Positions 2,694 to 64,000 of a DNA stretch of 64,000 bases are shown piece by piece. This DNA comes from Prorocentrum cordatum. Lineage: Eukaryota. The DNA lies in assembly GCA_963575745.1 (NCBI GenBank), contig CAUYUJ010000066.1, forward strand, positions 1 through 64,000. The letters run 5' to 3'. How positions within the stretch are numbered: position 1 is the stretch's first letter; every line of letters begins with the position of its first letter. The translations under genes were made by a program, and so were the position numbers. The notes under the pieces are model-generated. The model did not search any database. It was not told where the DNA came from and saw nothing but the letters and a program-made list of their open reading frames with translations.

Positions 2694-5600
2694 CTATTGA
2701 AATAGCTCGTGCTCGGAGTCCTCACCTGGGAGCTTCTCGCGCTCGCACTCGAACAGCACGTGCGAGCCAGGGAGGGTCTTCAACCAGTCCCTGGCAGCGC
2801 GCCGATCTCCCAGCGAGCACCCGAACATCAACTTGTGCTCATCCGCAGTTGCCCAGGAGCCGTGCTCCCTTAACCAACATACCAAGAAGCCCAGGGGTCG
2901 ACCAGTCCCCCGCGCTGTACGCTTGCACTTGATACCAATGCGATTCTTCCTGCAACAATGGCTGGAACGAGGGTCGGCGGCCTGGCCCTTCTTGCGCCTG
3001 GCACCCGCGCCGTCGTCGCGGTGCAGCTCGTCATGGCAGTGCGCGTAGAACCCAGACGTCGCATAATGAACAATGGCGCCCAAACCAGGTATGTCGAAAT
3101 GCACCACGTCACGGTCCCGAGGTTCCAGCGCTACAGGATCAGGAGGAGGTGGAGCGTCCCCGCTAGGTGCAGCGCCACCGTCGCCGCCTGCGCCGTGCCC
3201 ACCATCTCCATCGCCCCCGCCACCCTCATCACCTCCACCACCGTCGTCTGAAATGCCAGCGTCGGGCTGGGGCGGCGTCGGGCCAAACATGGACCACTCA
3301 CCATCGCTGGGGCCATCGTCTCCATGACCAGGGTCATCATCGTCATCCTGAGGGAGCTCACCAGGCCCCTCGCCATCGTCCGAGTCGTCGCCCTCCGCAG
3401 CAGCGCGCCACGAAGCAAGCATCTGACCCGCACTCAACTTCTTAGCTTTCGATGGGCTCCACCACTCATGGACGAGGCCGCCGCCCAACGCGACGACGTC
3501 AAGATATCGAGCCTGTATCGTGCCAACGAGCTCCCCCGTGTAGCCGACTCTGAAGAAACACACGTCCCACGCGATATCGGCCCTGAACTCGCGAACTGCC
3601 GTCCAGTCAGTAAAGTTAGTTGTGAGCGAGGTGAGGCGCGCGCGGCTCAATGCCAACTGCCCTGGGTTGCCCTCCGCGCGCCTCGACGCGTCAACACTAT
3701 CCCCCTCGTCGGATGCCTCCATCTCGTGGATGAACAACGTGAACGGCCTAAGCTTGACGTCGGCCAGGAAGAACCAGCGAGGACGAGGACCAGGACCAGG
3801 CTGGGCGCCGACGCCCACGCCCTCGCCGCCGTCGGCGGCGGGTCGAGGCGCTGGGACAACCAGGAGAACGATCTCAGCGCCGAGCAGGGCGTCCTGCCCG
3901 TCAGCCTTGGGGAACTGGGACGTCACGATCCTGTGGAGCTTGGCCCGCATGGCAACGTGTGCTTTCCCGAGGGGTGAGCACAGGCACGCGTTGGCCGCGT
4001 GGCAGAGGCGGGTCTTCAGAGTTGGCGGGTTCGCAGCGTTGCTGCTGACGTCGGGGACGGGCCTGTGCTGGATGGTGCTGTGGGCGGCGGCCCAGACCTC
4101 GTCGAGCTGCGCGCGCAGGAGCCGAGCGTGCTGGTGCCGACCGCTGTGCGATAAAATAGACCCCGTCATCTTCTGAACGCTCTTGTTCTTGAGCTCCAAA
4201 TGCTGGAAGCAGTCCGTAGAAGTCGGCGAGCTCGATACGTCTGGCGCGTGGCGCCTGGCCCCGTCGCCGATGGCGGCCATGGCGCGATCCACTAGGCAGC
4301 CCGACGCGTCCACGTCGTAAGCCCTGAGGCGCTCCAGCTCCTCCTTCTCCGCAGCCCTCGCCCTCTGCGCCTCCTGCCTCCGAAGCCTGCTCGCGGCCAT
4401 GAGGCCGTCCCAATCGAGGGCTGCGAAGCCGCCGACCGCGACGACGCCAGCGTCGGCGCCAGGGGCAGCGCCCGCATCGGGAAGAGCAGCCCGCCTGCGC
4501 CGAAGCCCCAGCGGCGCCGCCGAGCCATGATCGACAGCACAATTAGCCTCTGCAGCCCGTCTCGTCAAAGCAGCGAACTCGTCAGGGGACAAGTCCGCGT
4601 ACCTGGTGCTCAACTGCGCGAACGTCGGCATCTCTGCAATGGACTTCCCGCGCTTCTGCTCGCTGCAGAAGACGCTCCACTCGGACAACCTCCGCTTCCT
4701 CGCCGCGCCCCTACTGGCGCCTCCTCGGTCCTCATCGCCCCCTTCGTCAACGGCTGCATCATGTTGCTTATCGTTGAATATCTGCCGCCACAGCCCAGAA
4801 GCTTGCATCTGAATGCCCTTGGAGATCCACTCGGCGTTCATGCCGTGCAGGTCGATGGCCCTCCCCTGGGGCGACCATCCAAGAACGAACCGACGAAGTA
4901 CCCCATGGTTCCTCTCGATCGACACCTGATCACGACGAGCTTTCAACGCAATCGCCATCAACTCCATGCCTGCATCGACTGCGTGCACACCACCATGACA
5001 GCCAGTGAAATGTCGAGAGAACGCGTCCATGCGCTTAGAGCACTTCATGTCGTCTGCGATCTCCGACGCAAGGGCGCCGTTGGAAAGGGTGCCGAACAAC
5101 TTGTAGGGGTAGTTGCTCAGCTCGTCAACAAGACTATGAAAGCGACAGGCACTGCGAGCAAGCATCTGGAACGCCATCGTCTGGTACACGTGGGTGCGAT
5201 CTCTGAGGGGGAGACCGTCGAATGCAGCGTCATCCATGATCAGGGCGTGGCATGACTCGATGACGGCCCGCTCTTCCCTAGCAAGGTAGGCCGCCTCCAG
5301 CTGGTACGTCCGAGGGGGGCGACGTTGGGGGCCAGGCTCCATCGATCTATCCAGCTCCACGCGCCTCTGGGATCGTTCCCACTTGACGCTGGCCAGGCCC
5401 AAGAAACCGTAGATGTACGACGCGTGGATGTAAGCAACTCGACACATGATGACGCAATCTTGCAACACGAGGCCACTATCGCACCATGTCAAGACCGACT
5501 CTCGATACTTACTCTGCTCCTGTCGGCGGGCCTCCCAGACATCCTGGCCGTCGGGCTCCCCTGTGGCAGAGGGGCGCTCACTACGCCCCCGCCCCGCGCG

Positions 5601-7430
5601 CGCCGACGCACCCGTGCCGCGGGAAGTGCGCGGAGCGCGCGCGCCTTGAGGCCCGCCCCGTGGCGGGCGGGCCGCAAGGCGCGCGCAGCTGCTGCACCTG
5701 GGGCGGCGTCGGGCACGCTCGGGGCAAACGCGTAGCGTGCGCCCCCAAGACCTGCGACGGCGCCGCCAGCACCTCCTGCAGCAGCGCGTGCATCGGCCTC
5801 GTCAGCATCACCTGCATGATGTCCTGCACCAGCGCCAGGGTCAGCGCCGCCGCCGCCGCCCGCGCCGCCGTCATCAGCGATCGCAGGCAAAGGCGCGCCG
5901 CCGTCGGCAACAGGCGCCGCCGCACGAACGGCTCGAACGTCACCACCTGGACCAGCCTTATCTTGAAGTAGCTGGCAGAAGAGCCTATATATCGGAACGA
6001 AGAGGCCGTGCGCGATCGCCAGGGGCCCAATCCAAGACGGCCCTTTCTCCCAACATGTCCAGCCCCTGCCGGGGTAATTGTGCAACTCGCGGTTCACGAC
6101 GGCGCCGACGAATCTGAAGAGGAATCGCGCCATGACCAGACCACAGACAACGAAAACCGAACATCACCGCCGCGCCTGGCCAGGCCGACCCAACGCCTAA
6201 GATTGGCACGCGCGCGCTCCCCCCCCCCATCCGCACCCCTCGCCCTTAGACCGTATCTCGCGCGCGTCCCCTCCCTCTCGCCGCGCGCCGTGCCCCGCCC
6301 GCCTACGCGGGGGGGCCGAGCGCCAATCTCGGGTTCGGGGTCGGCCTGGCCACGCGCGGCGTTGGCGGCCAGCGTTCGTCGCCCACCTCGCGCTGCGCCC
6401 CTGGCGGAACGAACGTCTCCACGACCTCCTCGTCATCCCAGTTCCCGCCGCACATGGTCAGCACGAGCGCCCGCAGCGGCTCATTCTCCTGGGTGTTCGG
6501 GAGCACCATGTCGAGCTTCCTCGCGTTCCTCGTCCGCGCCTCCATGGACGGCATGCCGTATATGATCTTCAAGCGCTGCGCAATGACGAGACGAGCGGCA
6601 GCCCGGAATACTTTGCGGTGGTTGCCAAACCTCAGGGACAGCACTGCATGCGTCATGTAGCTGTGGGCGGACTTCGCGGGAACTGCAGCGCGCTCCCGAA
6701 CAGTCGCGCCCTTGTGGGCGAAGCAAAGGAGACGCAGCGACGGCGTGCCCAACGATGTCTGCAAAGCGCGCTCTGCGCGGCCAATGGCACCATCGCCGTC
6801 CGTGCAGCTCACCCTGTACGCCCTGGTGCACAGCCTCGATATACCCTCCCACCCGACCAACTGCAACACGAACTCGCAGGCCAGGAAATAACACTCTGCT
6901 GTGCACCGCCCAACGTTCAAAATCGGAAGGGGGACATCGAAGGTGAAGGCCGTATACTGTTTGTCGACCTGCACCAGCAACGTGATGGCACATTCAACCT
7001 GGAGCAGCTTGGTCGGGGCCTTATCTCGGGACGAGCTGACGTGCCAGAAGGAAGTGTCATGATTCAAGATGTCCCTCAAATGCTCGAACTCTTTCGGGAG
7101 AAGGGCGTCTGCTGCAGCCTCAGGGACAGTAACTGACATGGGCGTCTCATCGTACCGAGTCGTGAATATAGCGCAGACGGCCACCCCTTTCTTGGACACC
7201 ACGTCGCCGACGAGAGTGGAAATAAGTAGTTTCACCATGAATATGTGAAGCACCATAGAACAACACGAGGACAAACATTTCATGTTTCTCAATGCTTTGC
7301 GATCGATGCCAAACTGGGCTGCCTGGGACTTGAAACTCCCTCTGGTGCGCACTTCTCGGTTCATTGCAATCTTGACTGTCTCGGCGGCCCTGTCATCTGT
7401 CAGGAGCAAGTGCGGGTGCGAGGTAGCCAT
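2694..7430 (-). CDS. Large DDE transposase-like protein (C/DxxH group) with HMG-box-like and C-terminal Cys/His domains; exons 7430-6387, 6136-5698, 5560-2694 (1449 aa from the ATG at 7430; true start may be further upstream)
   Basis: Three minus-strand ORFs join in frame when introns 6137-6386 and 5561-5697 are removed (junctions ...PPGAQRE|VMARFLFRF... and ...DAAPG|EPDGQDVWEARRQEQSKYR...). Motifs in order: TRYDETP (D, ~7150), SCTDGDG (D, ~6800), LCFAH (CxxH, ~6720), VSIERNH (E, ~4915), RLSEWSVFCSEQ..YADLSPDEFAAL (HMG-like, ~4540-4700), HCHDELH..CCRK..GRPLGFLVCWL (C-terminus). Confidence 0.65.
5561..5697 (-). other. 137-nt GT-AG intron of the transposase gene
   Basis: CCAG|GTGCAG donor and CCACAG|GG acceptor, both phase 1. 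Removal joins the 5489-6133 frame to the 2694-5492 frame. Internal hairpin gcgcgcgccttg..caaggcgcgcgc at ~5635-5686. Confidence 0.7.
6137..6386 (-). other. 250-nt hairpin intron of the transposase gene (GT donor, non-canonical CTG|G acceptor)
   Basis: GAG|GTGGG donor in phase 0; an in-frame stop lies inside; the ends are inverted repeats (6338-6359 vs 6170-6191 match 21/22, and pairing extends to 6386/6143). Removal restores the frame. Confidence 0.6.
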
Positions 7431-7607
7431 CCGCGCAACGTCGGAGATGACCTGGCCGATGGCGTCGATGTCGCAGGCCCCGCAGCGAGCGGCGCCAGCG
7501 CGGGGCGGGCCTCCTGCGACGGGGGGGCGGCATCTCCCCTCCCCCCCCCCCCGCCCTAACACTTAAAACGCAAATGGGGCGCCGCTCTCATCCGCCCAGA
7601 CACCCAA

Positions 7608-47130: not shown

Positions 47131-48719
47131 GTAACGTCAGATCGTTCCATACTGGCCGACTCCTGGCCACTGGCGGCGTTCAACCTTGAACGCCCACGCT
47201 GGGATCGCAGCCACGTCGACACGACACGAACCCACTGGACCTCCCCTCTGTTGACGGGCAAAGTCAGGGGGCACCAGGTTAGGGGGTGAAACATCAAGCG
47301 ATACATCGCCGATAGATAGGCAACAGGCCCCTGTCGGCGATGAATGGGCGACTGGGGTCGATACGTTCCCCCGTGGCCCTATCACAGGGAAAGAAGGCTG
47401 CACAAACATAAGCTTTCCGAGGTCCGCGGAGATTTCGTGTTTCTGCGCTGGACCTCCCCTCCATGGCGCGCGGAGCGCGCTGGTGGCGGCGTTGGAGGCG
47501 CCGCCCAGGGGGTCCAACGCAGATCCAAGAGATCATGTAATTTTATCTTCTTCGACTGACGTTGCCCCTGACCTTTCCCAACCTCCACCTCTCGTCCGCC
47601 CCGAGCTTGCTGAAGACTCCGCCTTCGCTCCGAGGGCAGGGATCCCAAACCCCCGACGGCATGATTATTTTTCACAACTTCGACTTCAGAGAACTCGACC
47701 CATCCCCTGGGACCGGTTTTTCATCCCGAATCGTTTTCTGACGGTCCCGGGGCCCGGCAAAGGATTCTGGAGGCCAAAAATAATGAAAAACCTCGCGCCG
47801 TTATTTTTTCATGACTCGAGGGGGTCTGCGGGGGGGTGCACTGCCAAAGGGGTCACCACCAGGGGTGTCGCCACTTCCTAAAGGAACGGCCGCCTCCTCG
47901 AGGGCGTGGGCTCCAGGAGCGCTCCAGGAGCGCCCCCGACGACTTGGGTGACCCAAACGGGGGTCCAACTGAAACGGGGTGGGGCAATAGATTTGGGGCA
48001 GTTCTATTGCGAATGTATTGCGCCGGAGACCTGTATTGCATTGTATTGCGAGGAATGTATTGCACGCGAGAATCCAGCAATGCATTTGCGCCCTGGAATG
48101 TGTTGCACACCCCAACATGTATTGCAACCCCACAAAGCCATTTCACCAAATCTATTGCACGATCCCTTTGTCGCTGGACCCCCTTTTGGGTCAACCCGAA
48201 TGACGACCCCAGACGTCCAATAAAAACCTCCTCGAGCATCGATCCTGGATCCCCGATCCTCGGGACCCAGACAGCCAGCTGCTCCAACTTCTTTGGTGCG
48301 TGGACCCCGGAGGTCCAGACCACTTCTCCATTGAGAAGTCGAAGAATTAAACAGCCAGAGGTTGGGCCAAAGATGGTGCCAGAAGAAGCTAGCCGGATGC
48401 TGTGCCACTATCGTTGCGCCGTTCTGGCCACGTGATTGCTCTGATGTTCCGTGTTGTTCTGTGGTTGGCGTTTGGGCTATTGATGGAGAAATTCTCCAGG
48501 GCCGGCCCTGGAGGAGTTCTCCAGGGCCGGCTGTTTGCCTTGAGTCGTTTCTTGACGCGCCCGGGGCCCGGCGAAGGCCCCCAGAGGCCGAGAACGGCCA
48601 ACAACCGCCGGCTCCGATTATTTGGGAGCGTCGGAGCTCAGGGGAGGAAGCGGTGCCCCCCCCCCTGGAGGCGAACCCCCTGGGCATTGCCTGAGCTGGG
48701 AGCGGGAGAGAGAGAGCCC

Positions 48720-48977: not shown

Positions 48978-50514
48978 CCAGCCCGCCCGCCGCCTCGCTG
49001 CTGCCCTGCCGGGCGCGGAGGCCCGCCGGCGAGCGCCCCCCGGACAGCAGCCAGCCCATCGCTGGAGGGCACGGCGGGGGGAGGGCGGCTCCTCCTCCCT
49101 CCTCCTCTCCTCCTTTTCCTCCTCCTCCTCCTCTTCCTCCTCCTAGCTCCTCCTCCTCCTCCTCCTCCTCCTCCTCCTCCTCCTCCTCCTCCTCCTCCCT
49201 CCTCCTCCTCCTCCTCCTCTCTCCTCCTCGTCCTCTCCTCCTCCTCCTCCCCTCCTCCCTCCCTCCTCCTTCCTCCTCCTGTTCCTGGATCCCAGCGGTG
49301 GAGAGGGGGCGGGGGGGGATCGCCACCACGGACGCGGAGGAGCAGGGGGGATTGCTCTTCAGCGGCCACGGGAGGGAGGGGGGGTGGAGTGGGGGGCAAC
49401 GACACGGGGGGACTGGCATAGAGGGGGACGCATCGACGTGGAATCCCCCCGATAGTGAATCCGCACATTCCTGGTCGGGTTGGGGCTGTCAAACCCCTAT
49501 CGGCGATCAATGGGCGATTGGGGGTCGATGCATCCCCCCCCATGCCTATCCCCCCTATCGTTGCCCCCGAGGGAGGGGACAGCCCTGAGACCGGGAGGGC
49601 AGGAGGGGAGAGGAGGGGAGGTGGGAGGGCGGGAGGGCGCTGGGCAGGAGGGAGCATGAAGGGGCCCAGGGGCACACAAATAAATACACACACACACACA
49701 TCCCAGGACTCCCCATATTTCAGAACATTTTCTGGGCTTTCGTCTCCCCCCCCCCCCACTTCCCATATTTTCCCATATTCTCCGCGGGATCGAGGATTAC
49801 TATGGTGTCTGTGTGCTTTGCCCCCTCCCGAGAGCAACCCCGAGGCCCGGGCGTTGCAAGGGGTTGGCCGCCGGGCGCGCTCGCCAGGTCTCGGGCCCCG
49901 GGGCCATCACAGCTCGACCTGGCTCGAAGGGTACAACAGAAAGACAGGGTCGACCCTCGTCGCCACGGCGGGATTCGGCTTCTGACATTCCGCTCAGTGC
50001 TGAGCGGGCGAAGAGCGGCACAGCACGCGTTTCCCGTCGAGCGGTGTACCATAGTTTTTGTCCGTCACCGGTGGCGCCTGTCCTGGGGCGGCTGGACAGT
50101 TCATACCCTGACGTGCCTGCCACCGTAGGGGTATGAACTTTCCAGCCGCCCTGAGACTGGCGTCCCCAGCGGCGAAGAAGCTTATCTAATACCGTTCTTC
50201 GCCCGTTGAAGAACACGCGCCACGAGAGGACGGGGCTCCGACGGTTGTGGAAGAGATCCATCCAGAGAACGAACGACTTTTTAGGGATCCTAAATCCGTG
50301 TGGTGACAGACCGTGTGGTGACCTCGGAACCCCAAGAGACCTCACCGCACGGTCTGTCACCGCAGAGTCTTGGGACCCTGGAGGCCCCTGTCGCCCAAGA
50401 CATCCCCAGAGAGGGGCCCGAGTCCCAAAACCGTGCGGTGACCCCGAATCCCCACCGACCACCACTGGAGGCCTCCTAGATGGGGTCCGAGTAGATGGGG
50501 TCGACGGAGCTCGC

Positions 50515-50668
50515 CGCATCGCCGATACATCTGCGATGCATCGTCAATGGATCGGCGATGCATCGGCGATGCACTGGCGACGTCGGCGATGCATCGGCCA
50601 CGTCGGCGTAGAGAAAATTTGGCCCCACATCGAGCCGCATCGCCGATGCATCGCCGATGCATCGCCGA
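50515..50668. repeat. Palindromic GCATCGCCGATGC/GCATCGGCGATGC array
   Basis: Multiple direct and inverted copies. Confidence 0.75.
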
Positions 50669-51769
50669 CCGACCCCACCTACTCCGACGCCATCTAGGAG
50701 GCCTAGAACCAGACGGTGTGGTCACCACCCCGCCTGGGGGCCCCCGAGCCACTGCGCTAGCGGGCTCTGCCACATCTTGGGCCTCGGGAGGCCCCTCGCG
50801 GGCCCCCGGGGCATCACAGGAGAGGGGGCGGCTGGGCGTGACAGAAGGGGGGGGGGCGGTACCTTGAGGGGAGAGGCGTGCACCCTCCGTGCCCCTCTTG
50901 GTCCTCGGGCCCCTTTGGGGCACAAAAGGGGTGCACCCCGACCCCCCCCCCAATATCGCACCGCCATTGCTCGACGCCCGAGGGCGGGGCGGGAACACGT
51001 TTGCAAGGCGTGCGTTTGGGTAGCACAGCTGCGCATCTTTCGCCGGATGCGGGCTCTCGCCGCACAACCTGCTGCGGGTGCAGAGGGCGCAGGGCCACGA
51101 AAACGACATGTGCTTGTGAACGGGAACAACGACTCAGCACCGTTCCGACGTGGATTTGGCTATCTGACACGGGGGGGGCTTTTTCAAGACAAATCCAAAC
51201 ATGTGCTCCTATTGCACTGTTTCTGGTGACACGCGCGTGTTCTTTGCGGTGCCGAAGCTGGTTGTCGGAGAATGACCCGCCCTGGGCGCCCTGGGAGGGG
51301 TGGGCAGGCGGGGTCGGGCCCTGGACATAGCACGCACATTATGATATGTCAAGGTCAGGCGCGGCCTTTGGGAGCAGCAGCAGCAGCAGCAGCAGCCGCA
51401 GCAGCAGCAGGAGGACGACCTGTGTAAACGCAAGACTTATCAACAATGTCGGAATGAATCCTCTCTCCAACCTCCTTCTTCACTGGCCCCTGCAAGGGTT
51501 CATTTCCACCCAGGAAACTGCCGCGGTGGGAGACAACTGTTTGCAGACCCTGAAGCGTGCCAGAACCCCAATCTCGGGACTCCAACGCCACGGATCAACC
51601 TGACTGTTGCGTCTTGACAATCATGAATCGCGCCAGAAGGCAATTCCCAGGACCCCAACTCCGCGAATCGACGTAACTGTTGCGCCCTCACAATCCTAAA
51701 TACTTCCAAAACGTCATTTCCAATATGTTGACCATCGGAATTCGTGAAACTCCTGCAAACTCTTAGAGC

Positions 51770-52070: not shown

Positions 52071-55000
52071 ATCTGCGAAGCGGTTGTCATTGTTCAGCTT
52101 CGGGGTCATAAATGGTGAGCAAATCTCAAGCGAAAGGCCCACCTCACCCTTTCGACCGGCTTCGGGGTGCGACAGGGAGGAGCGAGGAGGAGGAGGAGGA
52201 GGGGGATGAGGAGGAGGAGGAGGAGGAGGAGGAGGAGGAGGAGGAGGAGGAGGAGGAGGAGGAGGAGGAGGAGGAGGAGGAGGATAAGGAGGACGAGGAA
52301 TGAGGAGGATGTGGAGGATGTGCCCTCGCGCTGCCCCGCTGAGATATCTGCTCTGGAGCGGCTCCCGCTCGGAGCTCCTTCACAAACCTACCCCTGGGAG
52401 GGGCCCCTGCCCCAAGCATCCTCACGACTCTACGGCTTAAACGTGCTGGACCCAAGTCGCCCCAGGAGCGGCCGAAAACGCCCCAAGAGCGCGGGCCGAA
52501 ATGTGTCAGGCCCCATGCTGACCCCAATATGGTTCCGAGCTGGTGCCAAGGTGGCCCCCCACATGGCCCACACGATGGTCCAAGACAGGCCGATTTACTG
52601 CACAGACGGCCCAAGATGGCCAAACAACTATTCCCCGGATGCTCACAAAAAAGCCGTCTTTTGGAGAGCCATGTGTTTTTCGATTGTGTTGGCCTCCGTG
52701 TCTGTGCCGACTTCAGTTGGCTTCTCAGGCCACGAGATGGTCTGAAGAGGGCTACAGAAGAACCCCAAGACGGCCCCGAACCCTTCGTAGAGGGTCCCCA
52801 TAAGGTTACATACATTATCCCGCATGGCCCAAGAGCAACCCCTGCGGCGGCTAGTGGGAGACAGGCTCTTATATGGCTTCAAGGCGACCCCAGTGGCCCC
52901 ATGATGACCAAATGGCCCAACATGGCCCAAGACAATCCCCAAGGAACACCGTGGAGCCCCCAAGAGGCCCCTGAGAGGTCCCGGGAAGGCCCCTGAAAGC
53001 CTCCAGAGATCACCAGCGAAAGCCCAAGATGGCCAGAGTCATAAAAACAAACACACTTTTATGTCGCAGCGCGGTAGAAGAGATCCGTTCGCGCCCTATT
53101 AGCTGGGGACGCGCGGCGTACTAATTCGCAGGCAGCAAGCAAAGGAGGAAGAGGGCGGTCGCAGAAAACAGGCGGGGGAGGAGGCACTCACCGTGGAAAG
53201 AGTTCCAGGATGAGCGGCCAGTGCGGCCAGCCGATGCTGGGGCAACGTGGCAGTGGACGCGGAGCGGCGTCACGACCACACCTGGGGGCTGAAGCCAAGG
53301 CTGCAGGCGCTGAGAGTGTAGGGCAAAGCGAACCAGCACGTCAGGAGAAGCGGCGCGCGGTCCCACAGCGACATGAGTGGGAATATCCAAGTGTCCGTCG
53401 CGAAGCCGTAAGCGTCGGACTTTGCTGCAAAAGTACGGCGCCAACAGGATGCAGACACGGACTGAGAGTCTGTGGCGGGAGACGGGGCTGCGAACCGCGT
53501 GCTGCAGTGCTGAGCCCACGGGCTGCTGAGCTGCTGAGCTGCTGAACTGCCGCAGCGCTGCAGCAGGGCGAGCAGCCACCTGCCAACGCCAGGGGAGGCC
53601 CAGGCGGCGGGGGGCGGCAAGAGCAGGGGATAGAGAGGAGCCACCGAGGCGGCTGGTGCACGCATCACCGCCTGGCGGTGCGGGGGCGCCTGGTCACAGG
53701 GCTGGCCAGGCAGGGGCGCCGAGCTGCAGAGGCGGCACGCGGTGCGGCGAGAGCGCGGGGAGGGGCCGCCCAGAGCGCAGCCGGCGGGGGCAGCGCGCAG
53801 GACAGCACCAGGCGCGCAGCACGGCTCACTGGTACCTGCGCGAACAACATGGCGCCTCCAGGAGCTGCACCGGGAGCGCCACCCGGACACCTCAAGCACG
53901 TCACTTGCACTGTAGCACCTGGTCGGTAAACATAACCGAGCGCCCCGGATGATAAAGCATTCCCCCTTCAGACCTGAGAGTTGAAATTCCTGGGCCAAGA
54001 CAGAGTTGGTCGAGGGAAAGGGCCCGCCAGGCCGAACTTCATTAGTGATCACCGGGGCAGCTACGAATGGAAATTTATATCTTCTCATGTTGAGTAGCAG
54101 CACTATCGCGAACGTGTGGCAAGTAAAAGGATTCTCACCATTTCAGCTTTCCAAACTTAAGAACGTGGGGCAGGGCTATGGGGCTCTCACCATGTCACCC
54201 AGGAAAAGCTCTCGCGGCAGCCCAGGCGTGCACCAAGTGCTTGCCCAGCATGAGCGGCTCCAGCGGGTGCCGAGGCTGTATGGGCGAACGCTTCGAGACA
54301 GTTCGCAAGAGAGGCTTCTTGGCGCGCTCCGCCAAGGACCTCCTAGTACACGGCGAGCTCGAAGCCCCTGACGAGCAACACCGAGGTGCTGGGGTCCGAG
54401 AGCCTCGAGGTGCAATCACTAGAGAATCGCATCCGTACATGCAAGTTCTGAAGCCCTCCGAGGGAACCATCCCATCCCTACCTCCGTACGTACGAGCTGC
54501 TGGGAAAAAGAATTGATTATCCCCCCGAGCCCCGATTTTTATCATCCCCCGGGTGTGATTATAGTAGTGAAAGAGAGAGGAGCATCCACCCTTGAGGGTG
54601 GACGCGCCTAGCAGGGCGGGGAACGAGAAAGGAAAGGGGGCCGAATCACCTCGGGGGGCCAGCACGCTTTCCAGGAGCACCTGATCGGTGCAACATCTTT
54701 TTGTTAGCTCTTTCTCTCGGGGACTGTACAGCGAGAAGGTCTTTGAGTAACTACGTCTTGCGTGTAATGCCTTCGCGATGCCGCAAGGCCCGCGCAACGC
54801 AACAAAAACAGGCCACCAGCGCACACCATCTGTCCAGGGTCGGCTGGGCCTCAGCCGCCTGCCCGTGGGCGCAGCGGCTTGATCGCGGGAGGGCCCGCCT
54901 GATCGACCAAGCCTGCATTCAACAAAAAACAACTAATTCGAGACACCCGTCCGACCAAGCTGAGGGGGGACCGTCGAGTGCACGGGCCCGTCGCGGGCGC

Positions 55001-55155
55001 CGCAGCTGCTGACTTCGGCAGCCTCTGCCAAATAGGGGCGCCCTGCGCCCCCCGGGCCCCCGCACCAGGCGCGCGCGCGCAGCCCCGGCCCCGCTGCGGC
55101 TGGCCCTCCCGCGGGGCGCCGCTCGGCACCTGCGCGGTGGCAAGGGGTCCCTCGC

Positions 55156-55968
55156 TCAGGCCTTCGGCCCCCTGCCGCGAGAGCTGGCGGCCGGCACACC
55201 GTCGTAGCACGCGTCTGGCTCCCCGCCGTCCGCCACCACATACGGGCCTATGCTCTCGCAGAACCCACGGGGGTCCTCCGTGATCTCGCCCAGCCGGCTG
55301 CAGACCAGGCTGTCCTGGCCACAGGGCGACAGCGCGGACGCCGCCCTTCCAGCCTCGTAGAAGCTCTCCCGGCAGGCGTCGAACCAGCGCGCGCAGAAGT
55401 CGGGGCAGAGGACGACCCGATCCGACTGCGACTTGAGACCGGTGCCCACATCCCCGTCGCACGGGGAGCACATCGCGAGCCGGGTCATCCGGCCGCACCT
55501 GCCGGAGGCGCTGTGGGAGAACGGCGCGTAGCGCACGAGCGCCTCGCGGGTATGGTTGCCCTCGCAGCACGTCCTCCCGTGGTGCTCGGCGCAGAACCTC
55601 AGGCCCTGACCGCTCCTGACCACCTACCAGACCACCCCAACCTAAGCCGAAGACCCAAGTTTCGGGTTGGCGGGGGCACGGGCTCCACGTGTTTTTTCCG
55701 ATGTTCCCCGACCGCCCCCCCCCACTGGAAATCAAGGGTAAATTTGGGCCTTCGGGTTGGGTTGGGGCGGTTTGGTGGGTGGCGCGCTCCTGTCCATCGG
55801 CACCGCGGCGCCGCTGAAGCCCAGCGCCGCCGAGCAGCGCCCCCTCTCGCCGGGCACGGGCCCCGCGCCCGCGGCCGTCAGCCGCAGCGCTGCCAGCGCC
55901 GGCAGCAGCGCGAGCCTCGGCGCCCGGGCGGCACGGGCGGTCGCGACGGGCGGCGTGGCGCGGGCCAT
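55156..55968 (-). CDS. Secreted folate-receptor-domain (Folate_rec-like, Cys-rich) protein, copy 1; exons 55968-55790 and 55615-55156
   Basis: Signal-peptide-like LALLPALAALRLTAAGA; FC..H.GRTCC...C....CSPCDG.VG....LC.DFC.RWFDAC..SFY....LSPC...SLVCS.L.EI......FCE pattern. Spliced length 212 aa; a further 3' exon via the AAG|GC donor is possible. Confidence 0.82.
55616..55789 (-). mobile_element. Introner: GA-AG intron with 43-bp TIRs and an 8-bp direct repeat (also at 58787-58960 and 61952-62127)
   Basis: TIRs 55620-55662 and 55740-55782 (36/43 complementary); CGCTCCTG at both 55611-55618 and 55785-55792; in-frame stop inside. Confidence 0.8.
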
Positions 55969-56038
55969 GGCCGCGCAGGGCTGGTCGGCGATCCTCGGGG
56001 CGTGCGCTGGCGCCAGCGTGCGCTTGCTCAGCAGAGCT

Positions 56039-56056
56039 CTTGAGCCAAAGGCTACG
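56039..56056 (-). promoter_or_regulatory. Relict dinoflagellate spliced leader (also at 59210-59227 and 62377-62394)
   Basis: CGTAGCC--TTTGGCTCAAG vs DinoSL DCCGTAGCCATTTTGGCTCAAG, ~70 nt upstream of the ATG and on the sense strand. Confidence 0.8.
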
Positions 56057-58326
56057 CATCACAGGAAAGACATGAAAAAGGTTCCATGATGTCGGCCTTT
56101 CTGCCTCTGCGGGCTGCAAATGGTCTTCTGGGCCCCCGTGGTGGCCCCACCCCGAGAGGCCCAAGAGGGCTCCAAGAGAGCCCCCCAGAGCACCAAGACA
56201 GCCTCAAGAGGTCCCATGACGACGCCAAGGTGGTCCAAGACAGACCCCACGAACCCTCCACGTGGCCCCACTAAATCCCTGAGGCGCCCCTGAGAGAACC
56301 CCATAAGGTGGGGGTGGTCAGAGACATAGGAGAACATAAGAAATTCAATGATTTTGGGCCTTTTGCCTCCGCGGGCCCCAGGTGCCCCTAGAGAGGGCCC
56401 CAAGAGGGCTCCAAGAGAGCCCCCCAGAGCACCAAGACAGCCTCAAGAGGGCTCATGACGACTCCAAGGTGGTCCAAGACAGACCCCACGAACCCTCCAC
56501 GTGGCCCCACTAAATCCCTGAGGCGCCCCTGAGAGGCCCCGGATAGCCCCCAGAGTCATTCCGAATTCTCCCGGTATCATATGTCCAGGATCGTATTAAA
56601 ACAAGGACTTGTCTTACATGACTGTGGTGTTCCTGCCTCTGCGGGGACCCCCAGGGGCCCTATCGCAGGAAGATGAGCCCCGACCTCGCCCTCTCGACCT
56701 CCTCTCCCCCTCCCCCGCCCACCACTTTCAGAGGTCTTTGTCAGTCTCTTGAGTTCGCAGGGCCCCGAGAGGCCCAGCAGCGGGGGACCAGCGGGAGCCA
56801 GGCACCAAGATTACCCCACGATGCCTCGAGATGACCCGAAGGTGGCCCAAGACAGTGTAAAGCCAGTTGGAAGACCCAACCTTGCTTCTTGTATCGTATG
56901 AGCGATAATGCCAAAGATAGGGCATGGCCGCGTGAGCGGCGAGAGAGCATCTCAAGAGTAAGATTGCGGGCCGATGTCAGATAGCGGGCCGCGGTGCGAC
57001 CCGGTCAAATTAGCGGCTGGTCGCTTGGGCCCAAGCGGCCGCGGACGAACGCTCGATACCTCTCGCCTTTGCCCTTCCTCCTTCAGAGTCGGGGTGGGGA
57101 GAAGACGAAGCGTGAGTCCGCTACCTGCCTTACTCAGCCAAACAGCTCTATTCCAAAGGAAAGGCAGCAGCCAGCGGGCTCAACCTTAGCAGGTTACCCC
57201 GAAGGTGGCCCAAGACAACCCCCAAGAAACCTCGAGGTAGCCCGAAGGCGGCCCACAGGAGGCCCGAACGAGCCCCTGAGAGGACCCCAGGAGGCCGCCT
57301 CCAGAAGCCTCCCTAAGACCCCCAAAATACACCCCGACAGCCCTGAAAAGGGCTTCTCAAATTGCCTTCTCGTACTTTTGGCCTTCGACGGCGAGACTCG
57401 GCTGGGGGCGTGATCCGCTGAGTGTTGCACTCAATCTGACAAGCGGCAGCTTCTCCCCCACGCGAGCTTCACGCAACAGATGGGGGCACCACCGCTCAAC
57501 AAATCCCAATGCCCACGAGCACGCACGCAAATTGCAAGCACGACGCAATGTGGGCCCGCGGAATGAAACAAACGAACAAACCATGTTCGGCGGTCCCCCT
57601 GCGGGCCCTCGCCGTGCAGACCCACGCGGGTTGACCAAGATATGGAAGAGTATGGATTGAGATGCATGCGTAAATGCATGCTTGGAACGGCTTCGTGCAT
57701 TCCGCCGGTCCGAAGAAGCCCGATGACGGCATCCGCAGGCCAGAGCGCGGGGATTACATGAGGATTGCCGAATCGCTTGAGACGTCCTCGAGAAAGGAAA
57801 GGGGGCCGAATCACCTCGGGGGGCCAGCACGCTTTCCAGGAGCACCTGATCGGTCTTTTTGCAACATCTTTTTGTTTGCTCTTTCTCTCGGGGACTGTAC
57901 AGCGAGAGGGTCTTTGAGTAACTACGTCTTGCGTGTAATGCCTTCGCGGTGCCGCAAGGCCCGCGCAACGCAACAAAAACAGGCCACCAGCGCACACCAT
58001 CTGTCCAGGGTCGGCTGGGCCTCAGCCGCCTGCCCGTGGGCGCAGCGGCTTGATCGCGGGAGGGCCCGCCTGATCGACCAAGCCTGCATTCAACAAAAAA
58101 CAACTAATTCGAGACACCCGTCCGACCAAGCTGAGGGGGGACCGTCGAGTGCACGGGCCCGTCGCGGGCGCCGCAGCTGCTGACTTCGGCAGCCTCTGCC
58201 AAATAGGGGCGCCCTGCGCCCCCCGGGCCCCCGCACCAGGCGCGCGCGCGCAGCCCCGGCCCCGCTGCGGCTGGCCCTCCCGCGGGGCGCCGCTCGGCAC
58301 CTGCGCGGTGGCAAGGGGTCCCTCGC

Positions 58327-59139
58327 TCAGGCCTTCGGCCCCCTGCCGCGAGAGCTGGCGGCCGGCACACCGTCGTAGCACGCGTCTGGCTCCCCGCCGT
58401 CCGCCACCACATACGGGCCTATGCTCTCGCAGAACCCACGGGGGTCCTCCGTGATCTCGCCCAGCCGGCTGCAGACCAGGCTGTCCTGGCCACAGGGCGA
58501 CAGCGCGGACGCCGCCCTTCCAGCCTCGTAGAAGCTCTCCCGGCAGGCGTCGAACCAGCGCGCGCAGAAGTCGGGGCAGAGGACGACCCGATCCGACTGC
58601 GACTTGAGACCGGTGCCCACATCCCCGTCGCACGGGGAGCACATCGCGAGCCGGGTCATCCGGCCGCACCTGCCGGAGGCGCTGTGGGAGAACGGCGCGT
58701 AGCGCACGAGCGCCTCGCGGGTATGGTTGCCCTCGCAGCACGTCCTCCCGTGGTGCTCGGCGCAGAACCTCAGGCCCTGACCGCTCCTGACCACCTACCA
58801 GACCACCCCAACCTAAGCCGAAGACCCAAGTTTCGGGTTGGCGGGGGCACGGGCTCCACGTGTTTTTTCCGATGTTCCCCGACCGCCCCCCCCCTCTGGA
58901 AATCAAGGGTAAATTTGGGCCTTCGGGTTGGGTTGGGGCGGTTTGGTGGGTGGCGCGCTCCTGTCCATCGGCACCGCGGCGCCGCTGAAGCCCAGCGCCG
59001 CCGAGCAGCGCCCCCTCTCGCCGGGCACGGGCCCCGCGCCCGCGGCCGTCAGCCGCAGCGCTGCCAGCGCCGGCAGCAGCGCGAGCCTCGGCGCCCGGGC
59101 GGCACGGGCGGTCGCGACGGGCGGCGTGGCGCGGGCCAT
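58327..59139 (-). CDS. Folate-receptor-domain protein, copy 2; exons 59139-58961 and 58786-58327
   Basis: Same translation as copy 1. Confidence 0.82.
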
Positions 59140-61491
59140 GGCCGCGCAGGGCTGGTCGGCGATCCTCGGGGCGTGCGCTGGCGCCAGCGTGCGCTTGCTC
59201 AGCAGAGCTCTTGAGCCAAAGGCTACGCATCACAGGAAAGACATGAAAAAGGTTCCATGATGTCGGCCTTTCTGCCTCTGCGGGCTGCAAATGGTCTTCT
59301 GGGCCCCCGTGGTGGCCCCACCCCGAGAGGCCCAAGCGGGCTCCAAGAGAGCCCCCCAGAGCACCAAGACAGCCTCAAGAGGTCCCATGACGACGCCAAG
59401 GTGGTCCAAGACAGACCCCACGAACCCTCCACGTGGCCCCAATAAATCCCTGAGGCGCCCCTGAGAGAACCCCATAAGGTGGGGGTGGTCAGAGACATAG
59501 GAGAACATAAGAAGTTCAATGATTTTGGGCCTTTTGCCTCCGCGGGCCCCAGGTGCCCCTAGAGAGGGCCCCAAGAGGGCTCCAAGAGAGCCCCCCAGAG
59601 CACCAAGACAGCCTCAAGAGGGCTCATGACGACTCCAAGGTGGTCCAAGACAGACCCCACGAACCCTCCACGTGGCCCCACTAAATCCCTGAGGCGCCCC
59701 TGAGAGGCCCCGGATAGCCCCCAGAGTCATTCCGAATTCTCCCGGTATCATATGTCCAGGATCGTATTAAAACAAAGACTTGTCTTACATGACTGTGGTG
59801 TTCCTGCCTCTGCGGGGACCCCCAGGGGCCCTATCGCAGGAAGATGAGCCCCGACCTCGCCCTCTCGACCTCCTCTCCCCCTCCCCCGCCCACCACTTTC
59901 AGAGGTCTTTGTCAGTCTCTTGAGTTCGCAGGGCCCCGAGAGGCCCAGCAGCGGGGGACCAGCGGGAGCCAGGCACCAAGATTACCCCACGATGCCTCGA
60001 GATGACCCGAAGGTGGCCCAAGACAGTGTAAAGCCAGTTGGAAGACCCAACCTTGCTTGTTGTATCGTATTAGCGATAATGCCAAAGATAGGAAATGGCC
60101 GCGTGAGCGGCGAGAGAACATCTCAAGAGTAAGATTGCGGGCCGATGTCAGATAGCGGGCCGCGGTGCGACCCGGTCAAATTGGCGGCTGGTCGCTTGGG
60201 CCCAAGCGGCCGCGGACGAACGCTCGATACCTCTCGCCTTTGCCCTTCCTCCTTCAGAGTCGGGGTGGGGAGAAGACGAAGCGTGAGTCCGCTACCGGCC
60301 TTACTCAGCCAAACAGCTCTATCCCAAAGGAAAGGCAGCAGCCAGCGGGCTCAACCTTAGCAGGTTACCCCGAAGGTGGCCCAAGACAACCCCCAAGAAA
60401 CCTCGAGGTAGCCCGAAGGCGGCCCACAGGAGGCCCGAACGAGCCCCTGAGAGGACCCCAGGAGGCCGCCTCCAGAAGCCTCCCAAAGACCCCCCAAATA
60501 CACCCCGACAGCCCTGAAAAGGGCTTCTCAAATTGCCTTCTCGTACTTTTGGCCTTCGACGGCGAGACTCGGCTGGGGGCGTGATCCGCTGAGTGTTGCA
60601 CTCAATCTGACAAGCGGCAGCTTCTCCCCCACGCGAGCTTCACGCAACAGATGGGGGCACCACCGCTCAACAAATCCCAATGCCCACGAGCACGCACGCA
60701 AATTGCAAGCACGACGCAATGTGGGCCCGCGGAATGAAACAAACGAACAAACCATGTTCGGCGGTCCCCCTGCGGGCCCTCGCCGTGCAGACCCACGCGG
60801 GTTGACCAAGATATGGAAGAGTATGGATTGAGATGCATGCGTAAATGCATGCTTGGAACGGCTTCGTGCATTCCGCTGGTCCGAAGAGGCCCGATGACGG
60901 CATCCGCAGGCCAGAGCGCGGGGATTACATGAGGATTGCCGAATCGCTTGAGACGTCCTCGAGAAAGGAAAGGGGGCCGAATCACCTCGGGGGGCCAGCA
61001 CGCTTTCCAGGAGCACCTGATCGGTGCAACATCTTTTTGTTTGCTCTTTCTCTCGGGGACTGTACAGCGAGAGGGTCTTTGAGTAACTACGTCTTGCGTG
61101 TAATGCCTTCGCGGTGCCGCAAGGCCCGCGCAACGCAACAAAAACAGGCCACCAGCGCACACCATCTGTCCAGGGTCGGCTGGGCCTCAGCCGCCTGCCC
61201 GTGGGCGCAGCGGCTTGATCGCGGGAGGGCCCGCCTGATCGACCAAGCCTGCATTCAACAAAAAACAACTAATTCGAGACACCCGTCCGACCAAGCTGAG
61301 GGGGGACCGTCGAGTGCACGGGCCCGTCGCGGGCGCCGCAGCTGCTGACTTCGGCAGCCTCTGCCAAATAGGGGCGCCCTGCGCCCCCCGGGCCCCCGCA
61401 CCAGGCGCGCGCGCGCAGCCCCGGCCCCGCTGCGGCTGGCCCTCCCGCGGGGCGCCGCTCGGCACCTGCGCGGTGGCAAGGGGTCCCTCGC

Positions 61492-62306
61492 TCAGGCCTT
61501 CGGCCCCCTGCCGCGAGAGCTGGCGGCCGGCACACCGTCGTAGCACGCGTCTGGCTCCCCGCCGTCCGCCACCACGTACGGGCCGATGCTCTCGCAGAAC
61601 CCACGGGGGTCCTCCGTGATCTCGCCCAGCCGGCTGCAGACCAGGCTGTCCTGGCCACAGGGCGACAGCGCGGACGCCGCCCTTCCAGCCTCGTAGAAGC
61701 TCTCCCGGCAGGCGTCGAACCAGCGCGCGCAGAAGTCGGGGCAGAGGACGACCCGATCCGACTGCGACTTGAGACCGGTGCCCACATCCCCGTCGCACGG
61801 GGAGCACATCGCGAGCCGGGTCATCCGGCCGCACCTGCCGGAGGCGCTGTGGGAGAACGGCGCGTAGCGCACGAGCGCCTCGCGGGTATGGTTGCCCTCG
61901 CAGCACGTCCTCCCGTGGTGCTCGGCGCAGAACCTCAGGCCCTGACCGCTCCTGACCACCTACCAGACCACCCCAACCTAAGCCGAAGACCCAAGTTTCG
62001 GGTTGGCGGGGGCACGGGCTCCACGTGTTTTTTCCGATGTTCCCCGACCGCACCCCCCCCCTCTGGAAATCAAGGGTAAATTTGGGCCTTCGGGTTGGGT
62101 TGGGGCGGTTTGGTGGGTGGCGCGCTCCTGTCCATCGGCACCGCGGCGCCGCTGAAGCCCAGCGCCGCCGAGCAGCGCCCCCTCTCGCCGGGCACGGGCC
62201 CCGCGCCCGCGGCCGTCAGCCGCAGCGCTGCCAGCGCCGGCAGCAGCGCGAGCCTCGGCGCCCGGGCGGCACGGGCGGTCGCGACGGGCGGCGTGGCGCG
62301 GGCCAT
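61492..62306 (-). CDS. Folate-receptor-domain protein, copy 3; exons 62306-62128 and 61951-61492
   Basis: Same protein; two synonymous changes (ATA>ATC, TAT>TAC) and a 2-nt longer intron. Confidence 0.82.
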
Positions 62307-63423
62307 GGCCGCGCAGGGCTGGTCGGCGATCCTCGGGGCGTGCGCTGGCGCCAGCGTGCGCTTGCTCAGCAGAGCTCTTGAGCCAAAGGCTACGCATCAC
62401 AGGAAAGACATGAAAAAGGTTCCATGATGTCGGCCTTTCTGCCTCTGCGGGCTGCAAATGGTCTCTGGGCCCCCGTGGTGGCCCCACCCCGAGAGGCCCA
62501 AGAGGGCTCCAAGAGAGCCCCCCAGAGCACCAAGACAGCCTCAAGAGGTCCCATGACGACGCCAAGGTGGTCCAAGACAGACCCCACGAACCCTCCACGT
62601 GGCCCCACTAAATCCCTGAGGCGCCCCTGAGAGAACCCCATAAGGTGGGGGTGGTCAGAGACATAGGAGAACATAAGAAGTTCAATGATTTGGGGCCTTT
62701 TGCCTCCGCGGGCCCCAGGTGCCCCTAGAGAGGGCCCCAAGAGGGCTCCAAGAGAGCCCCCCAGAGCACCAAGACAGCCTCAAGAGGGCTCATGACGACT
62801 CCAAGGTGGTCCAAGACAGACCCTACGAACCCTCCACGTGGCCCCACTAAATCCCTGAGGCGCCCCTGAGAGGCCCCGGATAGCCCCCAGAGTCATTCCG
62901 AATTCTCCCGGTATCATATGTCCAGGATCGTATTAAAACAAAGACTTGTCTTACATGACTGTGGTGTTCCTGCCTCTGCGGGCTCCCAAGGGCCTCTTGG
63001 CCTCGTGGTCGCCCCAAGGGGGGCCGCCAAAGAGCCCTGGGAGGGCTCCGACACTCCCCATAAGGACCCCCAGGGGCCCTATCGCAGGAAGATTAGCCCC
63101 GACCTCGCCCTCTCGACCTCCTCTCCCCCTCCCCCGCCCACCACTTTCAGAGGTCTTTGTCAGTCTCTTGAGTTCGCAGGGCCCCGAGAGGCCCAGCAGC
63201 GGGGGACCAGCGGGAGCCAGGCACCAAGATTACCCCACGATGCCTCGAGATGACCCGAAGGTGGCCCAAGACAGTGTAAAGCCAGTTGGAAGACCCAACC
63301 TTGCTTGTTGTATCGTATTAACGATAATGCCAAAGATAGGAAATGGCCGCGTGAGCGGCGAGAGAACATCTCAAGAGTAAGATTGCGGGCCGATGTCAGA
63401 TAGCGGGCCGCGGGGTATAGAAC

Positions 63424-63890
63424 CCAGGGGGGTAGCCTACCCTAGGCCCTACCCAAGGGCCTAGGGTAGCCTAGGGTAGGCCCTACCCAAGGCCCTAGGG
63501 TAGTCTACCCTAGGCCCTACCCAAGGCCCTAGGGTGGCCTAGGGTAGGCCCTACCCAAGGCCCTAGGGTAGACCTAGGGTAGGCCTTACCCAATGACCTA
63601 AGGTAGACCTAAGCATATAGAGCCCGGAGGGTAGGCCTACCCTAGGCCTACCCCTAGGCCTACCCCCTAGGCCTACCCTAGGCCTACCCCCTGCCCTACC
63701 CCCTAGGCCTGCCCTAGGCCTACCCCGTAGGCCTACCCCCTAGGTCTACCCTAGGCCTACCCCCTAGGCCTACCCCCTAGGCCTACCCTAGGCCTACCCC
63801 CTAGGCCTACCCCCTAGCCCTACCCTAGGCCTACCCCTAAGCCTACCCACCCCTAAGCCTACCCCCTAGGCCTACCCCTATAGGCCTGCC
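63424..63890. repeat. Palindromic satellite (CCCTAGGCCTAC / TAGGGTAGGCC)
   Basis: 10-12-nt units, inverted in the first half; immediately abuts the end of the array. Confidence 0.9.
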
Positions 63891-64000
63891 CGCCCGCCGG
63901 ATCGAGCAGACGGACCAGAACGGATCGGGTAGGATCGGGCAGGCATTAAAGTGTGGAGCATGTTCGCACTAGCACGCGTGAACCCTAACGGGCGGGTCGG

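Follow-up and report, generated by a model that had tools for sequence, protein, structure and literature searches.

Results

A folate-receptor-like gene in a tandem array

The window, by which we mean the whole stretch of 64,000 nucleotides analysed, has a G+C content of about 60-65% and contains a tandem array of 3165-bp units that are approximately 99% identical to one another (Table 1). Each unit holds one gene on the minus strand, whose second exon encodes a Folate_rec domain (PF03024, E value 3.4e-13, 50.2 bits as against a cut-off of 29.8); the N-terminus encoded by the first exon looks, by eye, like a putative signal peptide. Between the two coding parts lies an element of 166 bp, flanked by direct repeats, which contains a stop in the reading frame of the gene and is devoid of any Pfam-bearing ORF. 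The element is present three times, from 55611, 58782 and 61947, and as the three copies are located at the same place in tandem units they are not independent insertions.

The differences among the copies within the element amount to a 2-nt insertion in copy 3 and one substitution in copy 1, all of them in the interior. A preliminary description of this DNA had stated that copy 3 carries a 2-nt indel while its exons are unchanged, which holds for the indel and for the exon sequence flanking the element (identical among the copies over the 291-293 nt aligned) but not for the whole of exon 2, where copy 3 shows two substitutions farther along, at 55240 and 55249.

Seventy nucleotides upstream of the start codon a gapped pattern search detected a spliced-leader-like relic, CGTAGCCTTTGGCTCAAG, once per unit (three matches, 0 expected). 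Aligned to the spliced leader of dinoflagellates, the relic shows a 2-nt gap and one different base, and the canonical leader, with up to 3 mismatches allowed, had 0 matches in the 64-kb window. The leader sequence used here appears in 28 publications, a study on retrogenes (PMC5585692) being one of them.

Table 1. Coordinates of the element, its host gene and the surrounding array
Feature	Position	Strand	Remarks
Exon 1, coding part	55790..55968	-	start codon at 55968; 59 residues and two nucleotides of the next codon (Arg)
Exon 2, coding part with stop	55156..55615	-	Folate_rec domain
Intron under the GA..AG reading	55616..55789	-	174 nt, phase 2, within the Arg codon of ..MDR/SGQ..
Upstream copy of the 8-nt repeat	55785..55792	-	exon 1 ends in it with ..CAG, followed by the GA donor
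5' arm of the terminal inverted repeat (in the RNA)	55740..55782	-	
Interior of the element	55663..55739	-	77 nt; includes the in-frame TGA, the site of the 2-nt indel in copy 3 and a stretch that repeats part of an arm
3' arm of the terminal inverted repeat	55620..55662	-	the arm closer to the other family copies, whose similarity continues to 55615-55619
Downstream copy of the 8-nt repeat	55611..55618	-	contains the acceptor CAG and the first exon 2 bases GAGCG
Element copy 2 with both direct repeats	58782..58963	-	same insertion, second tandem unit
Element copy 3 with both direct repeats	61947..62130	-	third tandem unit; 2-nt insertion in the interior
Tandem unit 1	54624..57788	-	3165 bp; next units from 57789 and 60960; array to about 63413
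Spliced-leader-like relics	56039-56056, 59210-59227, 62377-62394	-	CGTAGCCTTTGGCTCAAG

The spacer of each unit has repeats of its own, namely a stretch of about 145 nt that is directly repeated at 96.5% identity, the two copies 237 nt apart (56154-56296 and 56391-56535, and likewise in units 2 and 3), within which there are 11-nt tandem repeats (AGAGAGCCCCA). At the end of the array, 63430-63891, dense tandem repeats with periods of 11-37 include palindrome-like units (CCTAGGGTAGG.. and TAGGCCTACCCCC).

Anatomy of the element

Repeat search reproduced the 43-nt terminal inverted repeats and the 8-nt direct repeat that had been claimed for this segment. The two arms are complementary at 36 of their 43 positions (84%) and the octamer is perfect, reading CGCTCCTG on the forward strand and CAGGAGCG on the minus strand. 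In the direction of transcription the order is ..ATGGA, CAGGAGCG, CG, the first arm (CCACCC..), 77 nt, the second arm (..GGTGG), T, CAGGAGCG and GTCAGG.., so that the element ends are asymmetrical beyond the arms, with CG on one side and T on the other. The seven arm mismatches, taken on the transcribed strand, are two G-U, four A-C and one C-C, just as first reported.

Scanning the 64 kb for inverted repeats with 43-nt windows, at least 36 complementary bases and arms no more than 300 nt from the centre returned solely the element described here and its sister copies in the other two units. At random places, an exact 8-nt direct repeat abutting two points 163 nt apart, with a slack of 0-3 nt, was found at 710 of 200,000. 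The RNA of the region folds with a predicted energy of -110.6 kcal/mol (z = -3.84), and none of 200 shuffled sequences was equally stable; in the predicted fold the arms make up a single long stem, by which the two borders of the intron are brought side by side.

The interior forms a second hairpin (55660-55731) and includes an exact 10-nt copy of arm sequence, TTCGGGTTGG, 55661-55670 being identical to 55751-55760; the interior may derive from a partial duplication of an arm. If a single mismatch is tolerated, the direct repeat itself lengthens to 12 nt (TGGaCAGGAGCG and TGGtCAGGAGCG) by way of 55793-55796 and 55619-55622, and the resemblance of the target flank to the end of the arm may be due to chance or may hint at a target preference.

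Removal of the element from the RNA

Logan contigs of four sequencing runs were aligned to 54800-56200 at 80% likeness. One of the runs, X15, is recorded as a polyA metatranscriptome, the kind of the other three (X1, X3 and X4) is not on record, and none of the four is recorded as DNA. Every run yielded one contig from which exactly 174 nt are missing, its sequence passing from 55610 straight to 55785 with an ambiguity of 8 letters; the missing stretch corresponds to the element plus one copy of the direct repeat. The contigs carrying this joint show zero other differences over 1013-1164 nt (926 nt in X15). Exact excision of the element together with one repeat copy, with a junction 55790/55615, had been predicted from the DNA and is thus borne out in all four runs. 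The depth of X1 is 1.38 in the interior bin 55693-55739 as compared to 453 on the exons, and the same bin is at 0 in X3, X4 and X15. The latter three runs are without cover both in the element interior and upstream of about 56053, a pattern that would fit RNA libraries and that we do not use as evidence; the X3 and X4 contigs terminate within the relic leader, at 56053 and 56050.

Removal of the 174 nt yields MDRSGQGLRFC, the peptide that splicing had been expected to restore, and the public protein P0001 already has this junction (..AAVPMDRSGQGLRFC..). P0001, 212 aa long, labelled Prorocentrum cordatum and 100% identical, consists of exon 1 joined to exon 2 with the junction PMDRSGQG, and therefore the same intron is already contained in a public gene model. 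Taken with the G+C content, this match marks the window as dinoflagellate DNA. The homologue P0003, from a 1252-nt contig and 82% identical over exon 2, aligns across the junction free of gaps. As 174 is a multiple of three, the reading frame alone is no proof of an intron; the proof is the internal stop codon, since the unspliced frame runs into an in-frame TGA at 55734-55732.

The joined RNA could conceivably originate from units of the array, or from an allele, that never had the element or have lost it, the element-bearing copies being silent or truncated and the element a plain insertion and no intron. Such a source would be in line with the records of the four runs, none of which is given as DNA, with the large size that dinoflagellate arrays can reach, three units being visible in the window, and with the relic leader, which indicates that cDNA-derived copies exist in the lineage. 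However, all three units of the window have the element, and the joint contig of X1 continues without a single difference as far as 56126, some 70 nt beyond the relic leader on its upstream side, and therefore comes from a unit with this same upstream spacer. Moreover, the public gene model that splices the same 174 nt was made on a genome assembly, and a GA..AG/G intron fits the splice signals of P. cordatum. We therefore consider an element-free source very improbable and retain the reading of a spliced intron.

A second public model, P0002 (197 aa), belongs to a sister copy and corresponds to about 55586-55803 on the minus strand; it drops 15 codons (VPMDRSGQGLRFCAE) by way of an apparent GT..AG pair. 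A joint that fits P0002 is absent from the joints listed for the contigs of the four runs, an absence from the list that is not proof. The P0002 model is probably wrong, a canonical intron having taken the place of the 174-nt GA..AG intron.

Splice borders

The 8-nt ambiguity permits nine placements of the intron, which on the minus strand read CA..GT, AG..TC, GG..CA, GA..AG, AG..GG, GC..GA, CG..AG, GC..GC and CG..CG. GA..AG is alone among the nine in having an AG acceptor that is followed by G. Table 2 of the P. cordatum genome paper (PMC10666404) gives GT, GC and GA as 24.7%, 51.4% and 23.8% of the donors, and AGG as 79.7% of the acceptors, in agreement with the statement in the preliminary description that GA donors are known in dinoflagellates. 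Because GA..AG is the sole placement with an AG acceptor plus G, and because it matches these donor and acceptor frequencies, GA..AG/G in phase 2 is by far the likeliest pair of borders and is an ordinary one for P. cordatum. In this placement the GA is situated in the upstream copy of the repeat and the AG at the junction between the element and the downstream copy.

Alternatively, the segment might be removed under the guidance of its structure and without the usual splice signals, in the manner of the hairpin introns of Amoebophrya or the nonconventional introns of euglenids, in which case GA..AG would be a coincidence. The long hairpin does set both borders side by side, the ambiguity of 8 nt does permit CG..CG, GC..GC and other boundaries, and the Amoebophrya introners with inverted and direct repeats have variable, undefined boundaries according to the accessible text of their description (PMC7789003). 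Yet the GA donor and the AG plus G acceptor agree with the 23.8% of donors and 79.7% of acceptors cited above for P. cordatum, and the published spliceosomal model for core dinoflagellates suffices with nothing extra assumed. We give a structure-guided removal hardly any weight, and proceed with the GA..AG/G intron.

Other copies of the termini

Aside from the contigs with the joint, the alignment to 54800-56200 returned many partial matches: 33 of the 45 records of X1, 14 of 15 in X3, 11 of 13 in X4 and 2 of 3 in X15. Some of them are GC-rich chance matches in exon 1 (55883-55926 and 55983-56026), and the rest pile up on the arms. The arm pieces listed are 41-68 nt long with 4-10 differences and belong to contigs of up to 3040 nt. 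The contigs that cover position 55646 (17 in X1, 4 in X3 and 3 in X4) all have C there as against G in the window, and C is the base predicted by the opposite arm. The flanks of the arm-bearing contigs disagree with each other (agreement of loose ends 0.53 and 0.66), and two joints hold both arms with just 36 letters (X1) or 7 letters (X4) between them, representing short versions that are little more than arms; the 77-nt interior is not common to the other copies seen. Since other contigs bear the same termini beside differing flanks, some of them as short arms-only versions, the termini are those of a multi-copy family, whose other copies were seen as partial contigs, the 8-nt duplication being read at the present insertion alone. 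Copies elsewhere had been anticipated, and contigs of X1, X3 and X4 show the arm beside other flanks.

The pieces that match the low-coordinate arm bear on the question of which nucleotides are part of the element. All nine of those listed pass the arm end at 55620 by 2-5 nt, ending at 55615 (one piece), 55616 (four), 55617 (three) and 55618 (one), and one contig of X4 proceeds beyond the end of the other arm (55782) with TGCAGG.., so that T(G)CAG is again found beside GGTGG. The family consensus thus seems to include TCA, and often TCAG, next to GGTGG. It follows as a possibility, somewhat short of an even one, that the element and the intron are the same as described above and yet the acceptor is borne by the element, or its AG spans the border between element and duplication, the terminus reading ..GGTGGTCA(G) on the minus strand and just the GA donor stemming from the duplicated target. 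In addition to the nine pieces and the X4 contig, an element-borne acceptor has in its favour that most published classes of dinoflagellate introners are arranged in this way. Against it, the perfect octamer of this copy includes CAG, whereas the alternative register, GAGCG plus three bases, matches at just 6 of 8 positions and requires that the element has lost a few bases from its 5' end, where CG is found and the mirror of TCA would be expected; furthermore, the overlap is explained as well if the two extra bases match by chance (1 in 16) or if there is a target preference. For this copy we lean modestly towards the register given in the preliminary description, with CAG inside the duplication. 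That description had derived both splice sites from the duplication; the GA donor in the upstream repeat stands, while the AG may be element-borne, considering that 8 of the 9 listed pieces reach 55617 and 5 of the 9 reach 55616.

In the 64-kb window itself no further independent copy was detected by blastn with 7-letter words, and nhmmer (--max, both arms) returned below an E value of 0.1 just the 6 arm matches of the three known copies. A 23-letter degenerate arm pattern had 0 matches in a metagenome scan, and the viral contigs scanned likewise gave 0 matches. A 17-letter terminal pattern matched at least 119 metagenome loci, which we rejected as family copies and regard as chance matches, as the best 30 of them, compared with the element by blastn, match over no more than 17-24 nt.

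Candidate transposase genes in the window

It had been suggested that the element could be mobilised by a transposase encoded at the other end of the window, and this link found no support. The two minus-strand ORFs in question, 2694-5801 (1035 aa) and 6303-7562 (419 aa), match no Pfam family at E values up to 10, bar one unrelated weak match. Atlas gave no usable match for the former ORF and leads of at most 0.83 for the latter; among these the leads with MULE/Mutator families score 0.79-0.80, a level that shuffled proteins often reach and that lies below the 0.9 at which the tool rates a match as more than a lead. The 6303-7562 ORF has a CFAH motif. No terminal repeats flank the ORFs at 2694-7562 beyond GC-rich matches of 70-79%, and neither blastn nor nhmmer found any similarity between this region and the arms of the element. 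A 63-nt inverted repeat (73%) at 6150-6379 is located between the two ORFs and overlaps them.

Target duplications measure 8 bp for hAT and about 8-11 bp for MULE elements. The 8-nt repeat fits these lengths, which are common to several superfamilies and do not discriminate among them, and an 8-bp duplication alone names no superfamily. A hAT terminal motif is not obvious at the ends of the element.

Discussion

Based on the terminal repeats, the joint in the RNA and the other copies of the termini, we consider it highly likely that the segment is a non-autonomous DNA transposon of 166 bp with 43-nt terminal inverted repeats, inserted in the 5' coding region of a folate-receptor-like gene, that is to say an introner, or introner-like element. 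The spliceosome would remove the segment as a GA..AG/G intron, and the hairpin of the two arms, which would set the splice sites within a few nucleotides of each other, may help the weak GA donor. The preliminary interpretation was thus largely right, yet the kind of element that it described is already known.

A likely order of events can be read from the array. A processed, leader-bearing cDNA of the folate-receptor-like gene would have reintegrated into the genome, leaving the relic of the leader; the element would then have inserted at ..CAG/GAGCG.. with an 8-bp duplication, an insertion that would be tolerated since GA..AG/G splicing restores the frame; and the 3165-bp unit would have been amplified in tandem thereafter, carrying the intron along. 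The spliced-leader-like relic upstream of the start codon suggests the cDNA origin, so that the unit probably began as a reintegrated cDNA without introns, and in that case the intron would be a true gain. As the insertion preceded the tandem amplification in this scheme, two of the three copies would be the product of gene duplication and not of transposition. The arms differ from each other by 16%, whereas the three copies differ by about 1%, which suggests that the tandem amplification acted on an element already old or imperfect, or else that the arms of this family are imperfect by nature.

Introners of Aureococcus anophagefferens and Micromonas pusilla are DNA transposons that reportedly (Huff et al. 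2016) bring one of the two splice sites with them and obtain its partner from the target duplication; unlike the element here, they are said to have canonical GT-AG sites, and they belong to unrelated lineages. Much closer are the dinoflagellate introners of Roy et al. (preprint 10.1101/2020.10.14.339549), which, in the accessible text of the preprint, have inverted repeats, duplications of 3-8 nt and a GH donor supplied by the duplication, with GA donors enriched in recent gains. Fifteen introner classes with duplications of 3-8 nt are described there for Polarella glacialis: classes 6, 8 and 10 have 8-nt duplications (GHN6) and function whichever way they are inserted, class 3, likewise with duplications of 8 nt, gives rise to introns in 5 frames on both strands, and classes 12-14 take both splice sites from the duplication. 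By that description the 8-nt classes (3, 6, 8 and 10) resemble the present element in being short and non-coding, with inverted-repeat ends, an 8-nt duplication and a GH donor, here GA, from the duplication; the AG acceptor lies at the element end or in the duplication, and the downstream exon begins with that GH again. Class 3 already includes the case of a frame in which both sites fall within the octamer. The differences are the species, the 43-nt arms matched at 84% and the local copies made by tandem gene duplication, and the comparison is one of architecture.

In P. cordatum, 2.4% of the introns contain introner elements according to Dougan et al. (2023, PMC10666404). Their survey pattern, as given in the accessible text, called for inverted repeats of 8-20 nt and direct repeats of 3-5 nt at most 30 bases from the intron ends, and neither families nor termini nor duplication lengths are named in that text. 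The species label is the same as that of P0001, the nearest public protein, while the element described here has arms of 43 nt and a repeat of 8 nt. Our literature search, in which the work of Roy et al. was represented by its preprint, found no description of a P. cordatum introner family; the later version in Current Biology and the Gozashti et al. datasets may hold more.

The introners of Symbiodinium (Roy et al.; Gozashti et al. 2022, PMC9860276) also have terminal inverted repeats; their 3' splice site likewise lies at the end of the element, their 5' site is taken from the duplication and GA donors are enriched among their recent gains, but in the accessible accounts their duplication is of 4 nt, which implies a different mobilising machinery. 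In Amoebophrya (Farhat et al. 2021, PMC7789003) a hairpin of inverted repeats likewise joins the exon borders and direct repeats overlap them; there, however, the repeats are of 8-20 nt and 3-5 nt, the boundaries vary greatly and can often not be defined, and according to the available text no family-specific repeat motifs were found, whereas here one placement fits the ordinary dinoflagellate signals.

The mechanism and the kind of element are therefore known, and at most the family is new. A bolder proposal, which we find rather doubtful as a whole, is that this is the first described member of an uncatalogued Prorocentrum introner family with an 8-bp duplication, whose termini are 'half splice sites' (TGA..TCA by the arms) that would, whichever way the element lies, give an acceptor or, if a G flanks them, a GT donor. 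According to this proposal the hairpin would be needed for the weak GA donor, and copies would increase both by transposition and by tandem amplification of cDNA-derived units, which would date the gain of the intron between retroposition and the expansion of the array.

What the locus offers is a single, RNA-backed case in which a DNA transposon has given a gene of a very large and poorly charted dinoflagellate genome a new intron, and in which the succession of a cDNA-derived unit, an insertion and a tandem amplification is readable. It also illustrates that gene duplication can inflate counts of introner copies. The picture drawn by the published work on dinoflagellate introners is unchanged by it.

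Elsewhere in the window there are other inverted repeats. The one at 47946-48196 has 51-nt arms that are 80% complementary and separated by 149 nt; GACGAC occurs on both of its flanks, though not at quite the same offset, and its ends show no obvious splice sites. It may represent a second family of small transposons. At 50469-50704, 35-nt arms matched at 91% lie 166 nt apart with no flanking duplication visible, and at 50058-50179, 56-nt arms matched at 75% are separated by 10 nt; the latter two structures sit in a region rich in tandem repeats of 11-25 nt.
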